64,000 nt of DNA from Candidatus Multivoradales bacterium (GCA_965223855.1 CBDCXM010000002.1:128001-192000); one strand, 5' to 3'; counted from the stretch's first letter, positions 40,452 to 51,602 are shown. The notes: generated from the sequence alone by a model not told the origin. Made by a program: numbers and translations.

Positions 40452-40997
40452 TCAGTTCTTGCGCCGGCTGAAGAGTCTGACGAGCTGATCGCGCGACGTG
40501 TTGGCGGCCGCCTGCTGGCGCTCCCCGATGCTGCCCGGACGATCGGCCTGGCGTCCGGCGACTCGCGCCTCCGCAGCACGCTCTTTCTCGACTGCGGTGC
40601 GGTAGGACTCGACGACCTTGAGGGTTGCGGCTCGCTCGACGAGACCGACGAGGCGCCCATTGTCGATCACCGGCAGGGTAGGGAAGTTGCAGCACAGGAA
40701 CTGCTCCACGACGCGGAAGAAATCCATCCCCGGCTCACACGAAGGAAAGTCGGTCGACATGTGGTCGCCCACCGTCGCCCCTTCGGCGGTCTCGGTGTAG
40801 AGGAGCGAGGAAACGGCGCGCATCGCGTCCTTCTCCGTGAACATGCCGACGACAGCTCCGTCCTCGAGCACCGCGGTGGCGGTGACATTCGCTCCGACCA
40901 GCCTCTCAATCGCCGAGAAGATCGGCTCGTCCGGAGCGAGGCGCAGTCTCGGTTCCCGCATCCAGTCGCGGGCGGCGGGCAGTCTCGGCTGGCTCAA
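40452..40997 (-). CDS. CBS domain pair protein
   Basis: ARDWM...VVGMFTEKD and VGDHM...LPVIDNGRLVGLV. Confidence 0.88.
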   Translation of the reverse strand: MSQPRLPAARDWMREPRLRLAPDEPIFSAIERLVGANVTATAVLEDGAVVGMFTEKDAMRAVSSLLYTETAEGATVGDHMSTDFPSCEPGMDFFRVVEQFLCCNFPTLPVIDNGRLVGLVERAATLKVVESYRTAVEKERAAEARVAGRQADRPGSIGERQQAAANTSRDQLVRLFSRRKN

Positions 40998-41218
40998 CCC
41001 GACTCTCCTCGGTGAGCGCCTTCGAGGGTCGCCAGAGCTTCGCGCTTGAGTCGATCCCGGTTCGGGCAGGTGGCACAGGTGATCGGCTCACCGTCGGAGT
41101 CGAGAACCGCGGGACCGCCGCAGGAACCTCGCAGGCAGCGGCCCGTGACGAGGACGCCGACCGACATCGCCAGCATGATGGCGGCAAAGAGTGCCAGGGT
41201 CAGGAGGAGGAGTGTCAT
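40994..41218 (-). CDS. nqrM: Na+-NQR maturation factor NqrM
   Basis: TM helix followed by MSVGV...LRGSCGG...CATC; directly downstream of apbE. Confidence 0.85.
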   Translation of the reverse strand: MTLLLLTLALFAAIMLAMSVGVLVTGRCLRGSCGGPAVLDSDGEPITCATCPNRDRLKREALATLEGAHRGESG

Positions 41219-42294
41219 CGTTCTGTCTCTACGGGAAGTGGAAGCTCAGCGGATTCTAGCAATCGATCGAAGGACTCGGAGGTGCGCTCGACGAAGCCGT
41301 CGTCGGTCCGGTCCAGAAAGAGCACCGCCCACCCCTCGACTCGCGCGACTTCCAGCCCCTCTTCGCTTCCCAGGACCAGCATCGCCGTAGCGACGGCATC
41401 GGCGACGGCACATTCGTCATGAAGCACGGTCGTGGACGCGGTGCGATGGGTTGCCGGCCCTCCTGTCCGCGGGTCGAGGACGTGACTGATTCGACGTCCT
41501 TCCACTTCGCGATAGTTCCGATAGTCGCCGCTCGTCGCCATCGCAAGATCCCTCAAGGGAACGACTCGCTGAACGACACCGCGCGCCGCATCCGGACGCT
41601 CGATCCCGAGTGTCCACGCCGCGCCGTCCGGCCGGCGTCCCCCTGCCCGCACCTCCCCCCCGAGCTCGATCAGGTGCCACACGAATCCGAGCGCTTCCAG
41701 CGCCGCCGCCGCGCGGTCGACCGCGTACCCCTTGGCCACGCCCGAAAGGTCGATCTGGAGACCCGGGAGGGCCTTCTCGGCGGTTCCCGCCTCTCGATCG
41801 ATGCTCAGGTGAGCGTCACCCACCACCTCGCGCGCCGTCTCGAGAGTCGTCGGATCCGGATCTCCACGGTGCGCCGCGCTCCCGAATCCCCAGGCTGCGA
41901 CCAGCGGTGCGACCGTGACGTCGAAGGCTCCTCCCGTCCGCGCCGAGACATCAAGTGCGATCGAGAGGACGTCCAGGGTTGGAGGAGACATGGGCTGCGG
42001 CTCGGTCGACGGAGTGTCGTTGAAGCGAGTCACCTCGGACGCTCGATAGGTGGTCATCGCGTCATCCACCGCGCGGAAGGCTTGGTCGACGGCATCCCTC
42101 GCCGCCTCCAGCTCGGCCTCGGTGGCGGGCGTCCCCAACTTCACCGAGTAGGTGGTGCCCATCACCTCTCCCACGAACGAAGCGGGACCGGGCGCGGGAG
42201 CCGGCGCACAGCCGAACCCGAACCACCCAACCATCAACAGGCCGGTCGCCCGAAGGTGCCACACGAATCCGCGGGATGCGGAGGTGGGCCTCAC
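41215..42294 (-). CDS. apbE: FAD:protein FMN transferase ApbE (lipoprotein)
   Basis: MGTTY, GAFDVTV.PL..WGFG, DLSGVAKGYAVD, ATSGDYRNY, SHVLDPRTG, ADA.ATA; probable GTG start at 42294 after an AGAGGGG SD-like sequence. Confidence 0.95.
   Translation of the reverse strand: MRPTSASRGFVWHLRATGLLMVGWFGFGCAPAPAPGPASFVGEVMGTTYSVKLGTPATEAELEAARDAVDQAFRAVDDAMTTYRASEVTRFNDTPSTEPQPMSPPTLDVLSIALDVSARTGGAFDVTVAPLVAAWGFGSAAHRGDPDPTTLETAREVVGDAHLSIDREAGTAEKALPGLQIDLSGVAKGYAVDRAAAALEALGFVWHLIELGGEVRAGGRRPDGAAWTLGIERPDAARGVVQRVVPLRDLAMATSGDYRNYREVEGRRISHVLDPRTGGPATHRTASTTVLHDECAVADAVATAMLVLGSEEGLEVARVEGWAVLFLDRTDDGFVERTSESFDRLLESAELPLPVETER
41672..41688 (+). repeat. Transposase-associated 15-17-nt motif, copy inside the apbE core
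   Basis: AGGTGCCACACGAATCC, identical to 42254-42270 and 48550-48566. Confidence 0.9.
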
Positions 42295-42370
42295 TTCACC
42301 CCTCTTACGCAGGTGCCACACGAATGCGACGGCCTCCACCCATTCCTCGGCGCAGGAGTGCCAGGCGAAT
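42254..42370 (+). repeat. Cluster of the same motif (2 exact + 1 degenerate) at the nqrF-apbE junction
   Basis: Exact copies at 42254-42268 and 42311-42325; GAGTGCCAGGCGAAT (11/15 match) at 42356-42370. Confidence 0.88.
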
Positions 42371-42408: not shown

Positions 42409-43638
42409 TCAACCGCCGAAGTCGTCGAAGAGGATGTTCTCCGGCTCGACCCCGAGGCTGTCGAGCATCTCCCGGCACGCCTGGAGCATCAGCGGCGGGC
42501 CGCAGATGTAGTACTCGCAGTCTTCGGGCGCCGGGTGGTCCTTGAGGTAATTGTCGAGCAACACCTGGTGAATGAAGCCCGTATATCCACTCCAGTTGTC
42601 TTCCGGCATCGGATCGGAGAGAGCCAGGTGCCACTCGAAATTGTCGTTCGCGGCGGCGATCTCGTTGAAGTCGTCCTCGTAGAACGACTCGCGTCGGCTG
42701 CGCGCGCCATACCAGAAGGAGACCTTGCGATCGGTGCCGAGGCGCTTGAACTGGTCGAAGATGTGGGACCGCATCGGTGCCATGCCGGCCCCGCCGCCGA
42801 TGAAGATCATCTCGGCGTCGGTGTCCTTGGCGAAGAACTCTCCGAACGGCCCGGAGATCACCACTTCGTCCCCCGGCTTGAGGTTGAAGATATAGGAGGA
42901 CATCACGCCCGGCGGAGTGCCTTCCGGCGCCCTCGGCGGGGGAGAAGCGACGCGGACGTTGAGCATGATCATGCCGCGCTCTTCCGGGTAGTTGGCCATC
43001 GAGTAGGCCCGCTGCGCCGGCTCGTCCACCACTGACACGTAACGCCACAGATTGAACTTGTCCCAGTCCTCGCGGTACTTCTCGGCGACGTCGAAATCCT
43101 CGTACTTCGCGACGTGAGGCGGGCATTCGATCTGGATATAGCCGCCGGCCCGGAACGGCACCGACTCACCCTCCGGAAGCTCCAGAACCAGCTCCTTGAT
43201 GAAGGTGGCGACGTTGTCGTTCGACCGCACCTTGCAGGTCCACCGCTTGACGTCGAGGATCTCCGGCTCCATCTCGATCGACATGTCACCCTTGACCTTC
43301 ACCTGGCAAGAAAGACGGCAGCCTTCCCGCGCCTCACCGCGACTGATGTGCCCCGCCTCGGTCGGCAGCATCGCCCCGCCGCCATCGAGGACGTTGACCT
43401 TGCAGACTCCGCAGCTCCCCTTCCCGCCGCATGCGGACGGGACGAAGATCCCCTTGTCGGCCAGCGCACCGAGCAGCGTGCCGCCGGCGGAGACGGTCAT
43501 CGCCAGATCCGGATCACCGTTGACCTCGATCGTGACGTCTCCCGACTGCACGAGTCGGGCGCGCGCGGCGAGTACGATCGCCACCAGCGACAGGATGACC
43601 GCCGTGAACATCGCAACGCCGATGAGGATGGTCGACAT
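42409..43638 (-). CDS. nqrF: Na+-translocating NADH:quinone reductase subunit F
   Basis: [12 protein letters not shown] 2Fe-2S motif, [24 protein letters not shown]-terminal DDFGG. Confidence 0.98.
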
Positions 43639-44252
43639 CAGAGCTGAATCCCGGAGAACGCCAGGAAGGCGATAGCGAGCAGGCCGGTCAGAAGGAAGGC
43701 CATTCCGAGGCCGCGCAGACCCTCCGGCACGTTGCTGTAGCGCAATCGCTCCCGGCACGAGGCGAGCGCCACGATGGCGAGCGCCCAGCCGACACCGGAG
43801 CCGAAGCCGAAGACGGCGCTCTCGGTGAGGTTGTACTCACGCTCCACCATGAAGAGCGACGCGCCGAGGATGGCGCAGTTGACGGCGATCAGCGGCAGGA
43901 AGACGCCGAGCGTGGTGTAGAGCGCCGGAGCGTAGCGATCGAGCGCCATCTCGACGATCTGGACCGCTGCGGCGATCGAGCCGATGTAGGAGAGCAGCCC
44001 GAGGAAGGAAAGGTCGTAGCCACCCAGAGACTCGTTGACCCAGGAGAGCGCTCCTTCCTTGAGGAGGTAGGAGTAGACGAGGTTGTTCAGCGGCACCGTG
44101 ACCGTCATGACGAAGATCACCGCCGCTCCGAGCCCGATCGCCGTCTCGACCTTCTTGGAACAGGCGAGGAAGGTGCACATGCCGAGGAAGAAGGCGAGCG
44201 CCAGATTCTCGACGAAGATCGCCTTGATGGCGAGGTTCAGGTACTGTTCCAT
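43638..44252 (-). CDS. nqrE: Na+-NQR subunit E
   Basis: [30 protein letters not shown]-terminal FSGIQL. Confidence 0.97.
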
Positions 44253-48487: not shown

Positions 48488-48566
48488 AGGTGCCACACGA
48501 ATGTCCGCCGGCCGAGTAGGTGCGCCCGCAGAGTAGGTGCCCGCAGAGTAGGTGCCACACGAATCC
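48488..48566 (+). repeat. REP-like repeat cluster upstream of the HUH transposase
   Basis: AGGTGCCACACGAAT at 48488 and 48550; GAGTAGGTGC three times at 48514, 48531 and 48546. Confidence 0.9.
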
Positions 48567-48626
48567 AGACAACGAGGTTCTCATCCGCTGTGAGATCCGG
48601 GTGTGCGATGCCGTCTGGCTGGTGTG

Positions 48627-49529
48627 ATGGCACGCCCGCTGCGATACCTCCCTTCAGAGGCTCTGGTAGAAGTTACCTGCCGCGTACTTCAGCGCAGATT
48701 CCTCCTTCGGCCGTCGCCGGCCCTCAACGCGATCGTCATAGGAGCCCTCGCTCGAGGGCAGGAGCGGTACGGGATGAGGGTCTGCGCCTTCATCTACCTC
48801 TCGAACCACTGCCACCTCCTGCTCTATCCGACCGACGGCAAGCAGCTTGCCGACTTCATGCGCTACGTGAACTCGAAGATTGCGCGAGAGGTCTGTCGGC
48901 TGCATGACTGGGGTGAGAAGGTGTGGGGCAGGCGCTATGTGGGCATCAGGGTGTCGGACACGAGGGTAGATCAGGTTCGCCGGCTCCGGTATCTGCTCTC
49001 GCAGGGCTGCAAGGAGGGGCTCGTCGCCTCTCCTCGGCATTGGCCCGGTGCGACGTCCACGAGAGCACTGATGCAGGACGAAGAGGTCGAAGGAGTCTGG
49101 ATCGACAGGACGTCTCAGTACCGTGCCAAAGGAGGGCGAGGAGCAGGGCCCGAAGCTCGGTTCACGACTCGCCATCGTCTGAAGCTCACGCCGCTGCCGT
49201 GCTGGGAAGGTACTCCGGACGCCGAATGGAGAGCAGAGGTGAGGAGGCTCGTCAAGGAGATCGAGGACGAGGCGCCGAGAAAGGTCCTGGGGAGGAGGGC
49301 GATCCTTCGACAGCATCCTCATGATCGTCCGAAAGGGCCTGCGTCATGGAGGCCCGCACCTCGGTTCCACGCCATCGAGCGGGAGGTCAGACAGTCTCTC
49401 GAGAACGCCTATCGGCTGGCGGTCATCGCCTACCGTGAGGCACGCGAGGAACTGCTTGAGGGGAGGGAGGCTCGCTTCCCATGCGGTTGCTTCCCTCCTG
49501 CCCTGAGTTTCGTTCGGATGCAGGTGTGA
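48627..49529 (+). mobile_element. REP-associated tyrosine transposase (RAYT)-like HUH/Y1 transposase
   Basis: MARPLR start, YLSNHCHLL (HUH), W.RRY, LRYLLSQGCKEGLV..P..WPG (catalytic Tyr region); no tnpB; GTAG-containing repeats adjacent. Confidence 0.88.
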
Positions 49530-49792: not shown

Positions 49793-49807
49793 AATCGTGT
49801 GGCACTT
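49793..49807 (-). repeat. Inverted degenerate motif copy downstream of the transposase
   Basis: The reverse complement reads AAGTGCCACACGATT (13/15 match). Confidence 0.75.
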
Positions 49808-49817
49808 TGTTTCTTCT

Positions 49818-51602
49818 CTACTGCGTCTTGTGCCGCGTTGCGACGCGTCGGCGCAGGGACTCGATGGAATCGTCTGGCACCGCGGTGATGAGCTGGCGGG
49901 TGTAGGGGTGTCGCGGGGCGGAGTAGATCCGCTCGGCGGCGCCGAACTCGACGAGGCGGCCGGCTCTCATGACGGCGATCATGTCGGAGGCGAAGCGGAC
50001 GACGGAGAGGTCGTGGCTGATGAAGAGGTAGGCGAGGTTGCGCTCCTCCTGGAGGTCCTTGAGGAGGTTGAGGACCTGGGCCTGGACGGAGACGTCGAGC
50101 GCCGAGACGCACTCGTCGCAGATGACGAGATCCGGATCGACGGAGAGCGCGCGGGCGATGGCGATGCGCTGCCGCTGCCCGCCGGAGAACTCGTGCGGGT
50201 AGCGTTCGAGGTGATCGGCCTCCAGCCCAACTTCGGCAAGCAGGGCGGCTGCTCGTTCTCGACGGTCGCTTCGGCTGTCACCGATTCCGTGGACCGCCAT
50301 CGGCTCCGTCAGCAGGGCGCCGACTCGCATCCTCGGGTTGAGCGAACCGTAGGGGTCCTGGAAGATCATCTGGAAGCGACGGCGGGATCTCCGAAGCACT
50401 TTTCCGCGCAACGTCGCCAGATCCACGCCGTCGAACATCACCGACCCGGCGGTCGGCTCGATCAGTCGCAGGACGGCTCGTCCGAGGGTCGTCTTGCCGC
50501 AACCCGACTCGCCGACGAGCCCGACCGTCTGGCCGCGGTAGATGTCGAGATCGACCGCATCGACCGCCCGGACCGGCGGCGAGCCGCCACGCAACCAGCT
50601 CTGCCGACCGGGATACTCCACCTCCAGGCCTCGGATCGAGAGCAGGGGAGTCTCGCCTTCTTCGACGAAGGTGGCTTCGCTGTCACCGCCTGAGTCGAAC
50701 CCGGGGTGGAGGCGCCGGGGCCGCCCGGCCGATTCGTAGGAGGCGAGGTCGAGCGCTCCACCGTCCCGCTCCGCCGTGAGGAAGTCGCCGACGGTCGGTA
50801 GCCGCCGGAAGGTCGTGTCGAGTCTCGGGCGGCAGGCGAGAAGCCCACGGGTGTAGGGATGCCGCGGCCGCTCGAAGAGTTCGAGCACCGGCGCCGTCTC
50901 GACCAGCTTGCCCTGGAAGAGCACCGCGACATCGTCCGCGATCTCGGCGATAACCCCCAGGTCGTGGGTGATGAAGAGCATCGCCATCCCGCGCTCGTCG
51001 CGCAGCCGGCGGAGCAGTTCGAGAATCTGAGCCTGCAGCGTCACATCGAGCGCGGTCGTCGGCTCGTCGGCGATCAGCAGCCTCGGCGACCCGGCGAGCG
51101 CCATCGCGATCATCACTCGCTGCTTCTGGCCGCCGGAGAGTTCATGCGGAAACGAGTGGTACCTCTCGGCCGGCCCCGGAAGGCCGACCTCCTCGAACAG
51201 TGTTACGGCCCTCTCGGCCGCCTCCCGCCGCGATGTGCGCTCGTGAAGACGGATCGTCTCGGCCACCTGTTGCCCGACCTTGTAGACCGGGTTGAGGGCG
51301 GCGCCCGGCTCCTGAAACACCATGGCAATCTCGGCGCCGCGGATCGGACGCAGCTCGCGCGGCGGAAGCCTCACCAGGTCGCGACCGAGCCAGGAGACGC
51401 TGCCGGCGGTGAGACGGGCGTTGTCCGGAAGCAGTCCGAGCACCGACAGAGAAGTCACGGATTTCCCGGAACCGGACTCGCCGACCAGCCCGAGCGTGCG
51501 TCCGGGCTCGATCGAGAAGCTGACGTCGTCGACGGCGATCGCCGTGCCGCCGAACTCGGTTCTGAGTCCGTCGACTTCGAGCAGCGGCTTGATCTCTGTC
51601 AT
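49818..51602 (-). CDS. Peptide/nickel ABC transporter ATP-binding protein with two fused ATPase domains
   Basis: [17 protein letters not shown] and [21 protein letters not shown]; HPYT twice; ATG at 51602. Confidence 0.95.

Follow-up and report, generated by a model that had tools for sequence, protein, structure and literature searches.

Length-neutral copies of TIRYT terminal repeats within the codons of apbE and of unrelated genes

The window analysed here is a 64,000-nucleotide stretch of DNA from a Candidatus Multivoradales bacterium (GCA_965223855.1, CBDCXM010000002.1:128001–192000); positions count from its first letter unless a contig is named. Its minus strand carries apbE (41215–42294), which encodes a lipoprotein FAD:protein FMN transferase and is positioned behind nqrF (42409–43758, also minus strand, ending at 42409). 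The plus strand carries a RayT-like Y1/HUH gene (48603–49529), part of an element of the TIRYT or "TIRtron" type. A short motif in the middle of apbE is the terminal inverted repeat (TIR) of this element, and exact TIR units sit, without any change of length, in conserved codons of unrelated genes in two genomes.

A terminal repeat within the codons of apbE

On the plus strand, positions 41671–41689 read CAGGTGCCACACGAATCCG (within ...gatCAGGTGCCACACGAATCCGagc...), such that the minus-strand codons GGA TTC GTG TGG CAC CTG specify GFVWHL; the peptide context in the middle of the apbE open reading frame (ORF) is ...AKGYAVDRAAAALEALGFVWHLIELGGEV. The repeat itself, AGGTGCCACACGAATCCG (AGGTGCCACACGAATCC plus a terminal G), spans 41672–41689 on the plus strand and together with C41671 makes up the six codons. 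It is identical at 18 of 18 positions to a second copy at 42254 and at 17 of 17 to the inner left TIR of the element at 48550. The ORF matches the Pfam ApbE profile (PF02424) with E = 2.6e-78 and 263.7 bits (cut-off 25.6) over profile positions 1–258 of 266, and scores 229.8 bits against the NCBIfam equivalog PRK10461, under the cut-off of 498. Its AKG...D and GGE/D motifs stand at family spacing, the A, G, D and GG being (nearly) invariant across 120 homologues. A preliminary description of this DNA had placed a GFVWHL-encoding motif in mid-apbE; the plus-strand reading, the ORF translation and the Pfam match agree in confirming it. Logan assemblies from three runs (two samples of one study, possibly the source of the genome) show no differences across the site. 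Because the same letters recur in independent Logan assemblies, the motif is not an artefact of a single assembly.

The same description proposed that the motif had replaced native sequence rather than been added to it, a claim supported by unchanged spacing and by the absence of the peptide elsewhere. Taking the best 120 homologues from 5.8 billion proteins, the stretch from AKG to GGE measures 32 residues in 119 and 33 in the remaining one. The columns encoded by the motif hold F in 20 of these proteins, V in 9, H in 15 and L in 48, and W in this protein only; FVWH is absent from the 119 others, and likewise from the other 29 of 30 loci collected from 41 related genomes. In the 22 closer loci the pattern is G-[LHVFY]-x-x-[YFLAH]-[ML]-[VI]-E with the spacing unchanged, apart from one extra residue in a single locus (L025). 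Two outcomes had been set beforehand as contradicting replacement, namely GFVWHL in orthologues from genomes lacking the transposase and a net insertion at the site, and neither was found.

Relative to the closest apbE orthologue (61% amino acid identity), 9 of the 18 motif-site bases differ, versus 7 of the 51 preceding bases; compared with any same-genus orthologue, the difference amounts to 6 or more of the 18. The glycine codon dictated by the motif, GGA, is uncommon among apbE orthologues, and the patch occupies the most variable columns of the AKG...GGE stretch. No closer allele was found, the best match among the 5.8 billion proteins being 60% identical and the same-genus genomes offering 54–61%; as no relative is closer than 60–61%, the ancestral apbE sequence is not directly readable. 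Two alignment rows derive from an unpublished genome, G005 (L035 among the ApbE loci and L112 among the GT1 sequences discussed below); no conclusion rests on either.

The TIRYT element and in-register copies in other genes

The Y1/HUH gene encodes a 308-residue protein with an HCH motif and a Y-x3-Q motif. It matches Pfam Y1_Tnp (E = 5.4e-6, 27 bits, cut-off 23) and scores 44.5 bits against NCBIfam REP_Tyr_transpos, under the cut-off of 80. A weak alignment (E = 0.02) to ISDra2 TnpA (2xm3) sets NHCH on DHVH (the HUH motif) and RYLLSQ on KYIESQ (the catalytic Y-x3-Q). Upstream, on the plus strand, are an outer left TIR (48488–48503, an exact motif match) and a run of half-site repeats (gagtAGGTGCG, cgcagagtAGGTGCC; 48512–48566) leading into the inner left TIR AGGTGCCACACGAATCC (48550–48566). 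Downstream, on the minus strand, lie inverted and degenerate inner and outer right TIRs (AGTGCCACACGATT, 49793–49806, and GGTGCCAGACGATT, 49868–49881), each with two mismatches. The genome holds about 20–22 diverged paralogues (54–70% amino acid identity), each with a TIR variant of its own (for example, AGGTGCCAGGTGAAT, AGGTGCCGGGTGAAT and AGGTGTCACAGGAAT); an upstream TIR with an inverted downstream copy is the layout in most of the 20 paralogues inspected, judged by eye and untallied. The protein family comprises 1051 relatives at E ≤ 1e-20, typically of ~301 residues, some of them named "REP element-mobilizing transposase RayT" by JGI (REP, repetitive extragenic palindromic). The element family is present in 32 of 41 related genomes, and motif copies (up to one mismatch) in 18 of the 41, of which 17 also have the gene.

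Other classes fit poorly. A REP hairpin is ruled out by DNA folding z-scores of −0.5 to +1.0 over seven units, none better than shuffles. The RAYT/REPtron class (class 2 TnpAREP) is excluded by Y-L-L-S-Q instead of Y-x3-NP, by the 44.5-bit score against a cut-off of 80 and by the lack of GTAG-tagged palindromes; GTAG precedes some motif copies only. IS200/IS605 elements (class 1.1) share only the Y-x3-Q spacing, given a protein of 308 rather than ~150 residues, paralogues that are 54–70% identical and no hairpins.

Several features recur around the elements. Outside each TIR (48512–48566 here; C9:526617, C9:3183558 and C8:737563 among the paralogues) stand two to three tandem units, each a spacer of ~8 nucleotides (nt) plus AGGTGCC, mirrored as GGCACC at the right; the spacers are identical within one array and different between loci. 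These arrays could be iterons, or else marks left where the DNA was cut after AGGTGCC and religated again and again. In several paralogues the ~170–250 nt of non-coding tail that separate the TIRYT stop from the right TIR occur as a tandem duplication that includes this TIR, yielding units that resemble miniature inverted-repeat transposable elements (downstream of G000:C9:525739–526617, C9:3053090–3053986, C9:1993163–1994041 and C9:1819379–1820281; G000 denotes the present genome). A stretch resembling CCGTCTG-N-AGAG-N-C is conserved just before the start codon in many TIRYT paralogues (48567–48602 in the window) and may be a regulatory element of the 5′ untranslated region.

Copies of the motif are far more frequent than expected by chance. 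The exact 15-mer AGGTGCCACACGAAT occurs in the window at 41672, 42254, 42311, 48488 and 48550; with up to two mismatches there are 8 matches in the window versus 0.21 expected, a number reached in 0 of 100 shuffles. Six exact 15-mers exist in the whole genome (4.52 Mb), five of them within 7 kb of the TIRYT gene; the sixth is a right TIR and belongs to a paralogue with 70% identity. A reversed-motif control finds none genome-wide at zero or one mismatch, and chance predicts ~0.01 exact 15-mers per variant (9 million positions divided by 4^15). The degenerate pattern GTG[CT]C-N4-[GC]AAT has 100 matches in the genome versus 7 for its reverse, with arrays at several loci. Within a crude coding mask, 11 TIR variants give 12 exact copies versus 0 for reversed controls and, at three mismatches, 856 sites versus 553. 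From these control counts and a per-site lineage-specific rate of ~2–3% towards a given base, we estimate that drift would supply well under 0.1 exact genic copies; at least three are observed in this genome and one more in G026, a genome of a different family in the same order.

Two further counts were kept out of the argument. The AGGTGCC...GAAT strand coincides with the G-rich, presumed leading, strand in 56 copies versus 32, and copies in arrays are not independent. A scan of genome contigs (596 Gb) with AGGTGCCACCCGAAT returned at least 116 loci, mostly in unrelated taxa, where ~1000 are expected by chance, which leaves its intragenic matches uninformative.

A counterpart to apbE is a two-domain cyclase gene (Pfam Cyclase; C9:2631922–2634567) that contains AGGTGCCACTCGAATCCT, an 18-mer identical throughout to an intergenic copy at C9:1992628, ~640 kb away. 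Here the genome reads GAG GTG CCA CTC GAA TCC TGG (EVPLESW), where 19 orthologues (76–86% amino acid identity) have GAG/CAG GTN CCN CTC GAC/GAG, a TAC-like codon and TGG; CCA, GAA and TCC are all present here and absent at these codons from all 19. A nucleotide alignment of 18 orthologues (the partial L087 left out) has a base unique to this genome in only 16 of 849 columns. Three of these lie in the 17-mer, all changed towards the TIR variant, and they turn a native 14/17 near-match into an exact repeat. The rare codons CCA and GAA in this gene, like GGA in apbE, derive from the motif.

A third case comes from the FG-GAP/ASPIC gene of G026, which reads AAC AGT CGA GGT GCC ACC CGA ATG (NSRGATRM) versus NNxGP[AV]RL elsewhere. 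At homologous loci the P is kept in 18 of 19 and the L in 19 of 19, and the loci align here without a gap. Native sequence and motif agree at about 8 of 15 positions. The local TIR variant has 23 copies in G026, the nearest one listed lying ~50 kb from the site. The repeats add no residues to apbE, the cyclase gene or the G026 FG-GAP gene.

Other coding matches are less readily interpreted. A GT1 gene (C9:2522082–2523287) has GGA TTC ACC TGG CAC versus GGC TTC GAT TGG CAC in its closest orthologue (66%). An HATPase_c_3 accessory protein of 567 residues (C3:158326–160026, at a contig end and near a TIRYT paralogue) includes an 18/18 TIR copy as codons for VPGEW. Two TIR copies AGGTGCCAGGCGAAT, 42 nt apart at G000:C8:403482–403538, fall in codons 76–95 of a 690-codon open frame with high G+C content at third codon positions (GC3), and are either coding or upstream of the true start. 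Motif loci of relatives were screened by GC3 and ORF. In one of them (G034, locus L038, C3:7229–7348), three AGGTGCCACCCGAAT copies share one frame (RGATRI/M) at distances of 48 and 57 nt. They fall inside an open frame of 1004 residues in which a malQ-like part is joined to a glgB-like one; the copies look like an inserted array in the malQ-like linker or the read-through of an intergenic array, and possibly add residues there.

Origin of the length-neutral copies

A conversion-like route is suggested by end-repeat copies that are exact and take the place of codons in register, in the cyclase gene through three substitutions in a native near-match, and we regard templated, in-register replacement by a TIR copy as highly probable. 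For apbE, a single templated short-patch event would have exchanged ~15–18 native bases for TIR sequence in register, keeping the length of ApbE and setting G-F-V-W-H-L in place of the family's G-x-x-[DRN]-[YF]-[ML]. The same process would have made the cyclase near-match exact and replaced the conserved NNxGP[AV]RL in the G026 FG-GAP gene. The donor would be single-stranded TIR DNA of another copy, entering the target by copying or annealing at a replication fork; the TIRYT enzyme may have nicked this DNA or set it free, and that would account for remote donors. Selection would then leave only length-neutral, tolerated outcomes in conserved genes, and in spacers and linkers the same repeats would pile up as plain insertions and arrays. 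We favour this combination—templated short-patch replacement, a single-stranded donor possibly supplied by the TIRYT enzyme and selection for length-neutral outcomes—with reasonable though incomplete confidence. That the enzyme is required is less likely than not. The apbE copies do carry the TIR variant of the adjacent element. The remoteness of other donors makes simple local slippage less likely and favours a single-stranded intermediate that diffuses or travels with the enzyme; such an intermediate would fit an HUH nickase-ligase.

The preliminary description had also suggested that micro-homology in a partly matching site guides the overwriting. This part stands for the cyclase gene, whose native 14/17 similarity argues for guidance by pre-existing similarity, and falls short for apbE, where 9 of 18 bases differ from the closest orthologue. 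The low native identity in apbE and G026 implies either that high similarity is not needed or that selection merely filters length-neutral products.

Several points weigh against the favoured account. The enzyme is linked to the event through proximity and co-occurrence alone, an association only. Homology guidance is not general, judging from native identities of ~9/18 in apbE and ~8/15 in G026. The well-resolved replacement cases number only three; the GT1 case is suggestive yet ambiguous, its F-x-W being native and its x position variable, and for the HATPase_c_3 protein 151 genomes of the order yielded no orthologue, leaving replacement and insertion indistinguishable there. The coding mask covers 85% of the genome and takes in some intergenic arrays, and the reversed control holds TAA and may be depleted in genes. 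The apbE event itself is reconstructed from distant orthologues, with no unconverted allele seen: at 41672–41689 only the motif allele appears in four runs of one study (two samples), in Logan contigs of depth 2–7, which drop rare variants and so give no proof of absence.

The strongest competitor dispenses with the TIRYT enzyme and attributes the copies to host-only templated mutagenesis, by template switching or very-short-homology gene conversion, with the 42254 copy as donor for apbE. In its favour, the apbE copy is identical at 18/18 positions to that copy, which lies 582 nt upstream and shares its strand and orientation, and the cyclase target was already a native 14/17 match; gene conversion was reportedly proposed for REP evolution by Higgins et al. 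in 1988. It sits poorly with the distances elsewhere, the sole exact cyclase donor found lying ~640 kb away and the nearest listed G026 copy ~50 kb, and with low native similarity in apbE and G026. Flanks show no homology beyond the 15–18 nt unit, and flank comparison of the apbE region with the element finds nothing in common outside units of 15–17 nt. We consider this explanation possible and clearly less probable than the favoured account.

Insertion followed by deletion, or an excision footprint, would have a TIR unit inserted and an equal-length native stretch lost, at once or in a later event, with selection on a conserved strand sparing only net-zero, in-frame products. Repeats clearly do accumulate as insertions where length is unconstrained: between the nqrF stop and the ApbE MGT motif there are 246 nt here versus 113–194 nt in eight relatives, and because of this longer nqrF–apbE spacer the repeats within it look like ordinary insertions. 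The three in-frame copies in the G034 malQ-like linker and the position of the apbE patch on variable columns agree with such a route. Random insertion plus deletion would not be expected, however, to leave three point differences in an otherwise native cyclase 17-mer, and unguided deletions would hardly produce an exact net-zero result three times independently. We judge it improbable.

Far less probable still is selection for a functional site, in which a protein-binding motif would arise within genes, one point mutation after another, since binding there is of use. The presence of half-site iterons (N8-AGGTGCC) beside the elements suggests that some protein probably binds the motif sequence; against this stand the unrelated nature of the host genes (apbE, cyclase and FG-GAP), the sacrifice of conserved residues (Y and P) and preferred codons, and the many simultaneous changes required in apbE. 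Chance, whereby natural F-x-W-H-L peptides resemble the TIR by coincidence, has look-alikes in its favour (the conserved 14/15 NFEWHL of nqrF and the GT1 F-x-W) and is scarcely credible given ~0.01 exact 15-mers expected, an empty reversed control at up to one mismatch, W at its column in 0 of 119 other homologues and at least 6 of 18 bases differing from every same-genus orthologue.

The published TIRYT/TIRtron systems, as described in two papers (Di Nocera et al. 2013, PMC3733652; Quentin et al. 2018, PMC6006769), consist of a Y1/HUH RayT-like gene with TIRs that are moderately abundant and single, paired or clustered; an Acidobacteria-specific TIRYT group and multi-TIRYT genomes are also described there. 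The present element shares with these accounts the Y1/HUH gene, non-hairpin inverted flanking repeats and a dispersed TIR family. It differs in its TIR (AGGTGCC-N4-GAAT versus the published GGGGWSAS consensus), in its protein (~301–308 residues with NHCH and Y-x3-Q, versus the Y-x3-NP of class 2) and in its about 20–22 diverged paralogues in one genome. The portions of PMC3733652 and PMC6006769 at hand describe no TIR copies replacing codons in register. Intragenic GTAG/CGTC REPs and Rickettsia palindromic elements (RPEs) are presented in PMC3733652 as insertions, most encoding 20–30 amino acids. They are alike in being short, mobile-element-linked repeats in frame within functional genes, and unlike in that the repeats described add residues, whereas here length is unchanged and native codons are overwritten. 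A 2021 TnpAREP paper (PMC8266576) still calls the mechanism of REP dissemination unelucidated. REP/RAYT systems (REPtron, REPIN) resemble ours in pairing a domesticated-looking HUH gene with cognate flanking repeats dispersed in the genome. They are set apart by the absence here of a palindrome and of a constant GTAG tag, by many paralogues versus a single copy and by an NCBIfam RAYT score under the cut-off. The present copies number ~100 and represent HUH-element ends, in contrast to DNA uptake sequences (USS/DUS), which number in the thousands, are not known to be linked to transposase genes and arise from point mutation plus uptake bias. Like the present copies, those are exact short motifs lying in codons, in register, without indels and at tolerant positions. 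In-register replacement by repeats appears in no title or abstract of the TIRYT and REPIN/RAYT papers retrieved, a search that covered titles and abstracts and did not extend to the intragenic-REP supplementary tables (Additional file 3, PMC3733652), which might hold length-neutral cases. In the accessible text of the TIRYT and REP papers, 'gene conversion' is found in reference lists only.

Ever since REP and TIR repeats were discovered, the way in which they multiply has been an open question, and intragenic repeats have so far been treated as insertions in the literature available to us. The broadest proposal, that TIRYT-family HUH enzymes are natural short-patch DNA writers, releasing or carrying their 15–18-base end-repeats as single strands and installing them in trans elsewhere in the chromosome by equal-length exchange, is speculative, and we hold it unlikely at present. 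If true, TIR- and REP-type repeats would spread by overwriting (conversion) rather than by classical insertion, with conserved genes recording the length-neutral outcomes, and an HUH protein responsible for this would provide an editor of short patches that is compact and naturally programmable. Were the host acting alone, the ends of mobile elements could still rewrite conserved residues of housekeeping enzymes (in the cyclase a Y has become S, in the FG-GAP protein a P has become A, and ApbE has a unique W).

Neighbouring copies and the start of apbE

Further solo TIR copies lie close to the apbE start, on the plus strand. One, an exact motif match at 42254–42271, is in the apbE frame and gives SRGFVWHLRATG...; as the preliminary description had noted, it too yields FVWHL, and we find it in the same frame, where, given the GTG start proposed below, it encodes RGFVWHLR in the signal-peptide n-region of ApbE. 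A second exact copy, AGGTGCCACACGAATG (42311–42326), is in the nqrF–apbE spacer, upstream of a proposed Shine–Dalgarno sequence; it is also in the apbE frame and probably precedes the start of the gene. A degenerate copy, AGGAGTGCCAGGCGAAT (42354–42370), in the same spacer resembles another TIR variant of the genome.

The start of apbE is best placed, we infer, at GTG 42294 behind AAGAGGGG. The product would then begin MRPTSASRGFVWHLRATGLLMVGWFGFGC, a lipoprotein signal peptide as in homologues whose N termini were compared. The deposited or called protein (374 residues, P0001) instead has its first codon at GTG 42339 and takes in two repeat copies, which seem to have misled the choice of start. 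Even were the host alone responsible for the copies, gene callers are misled, extending the apbE start over two repeats.

Within nqrF, minus-strand codons TTC GAG TGG CAC CTG at 42626–42640, part of the native NFEWHL, match the reverse complement of the motif at 14 of 15 positions (two mismatches when scored against the 14-mer) and are unconverted; FxWHLA[LM]S is kept in all 17 nqrF 3′ ends found among 22 loci. This site is only ~315–370 nt from the spacer copies, and the near-match may be a coincidence or a hint at why copies cluster nearby. Directly behind apbE, on the minus strand at 40994–41218, lies a small Cys-rich membrane ORF of 74 amino acids that lacks a Pfam match, and which may be akin to the NqrM maturation factor.

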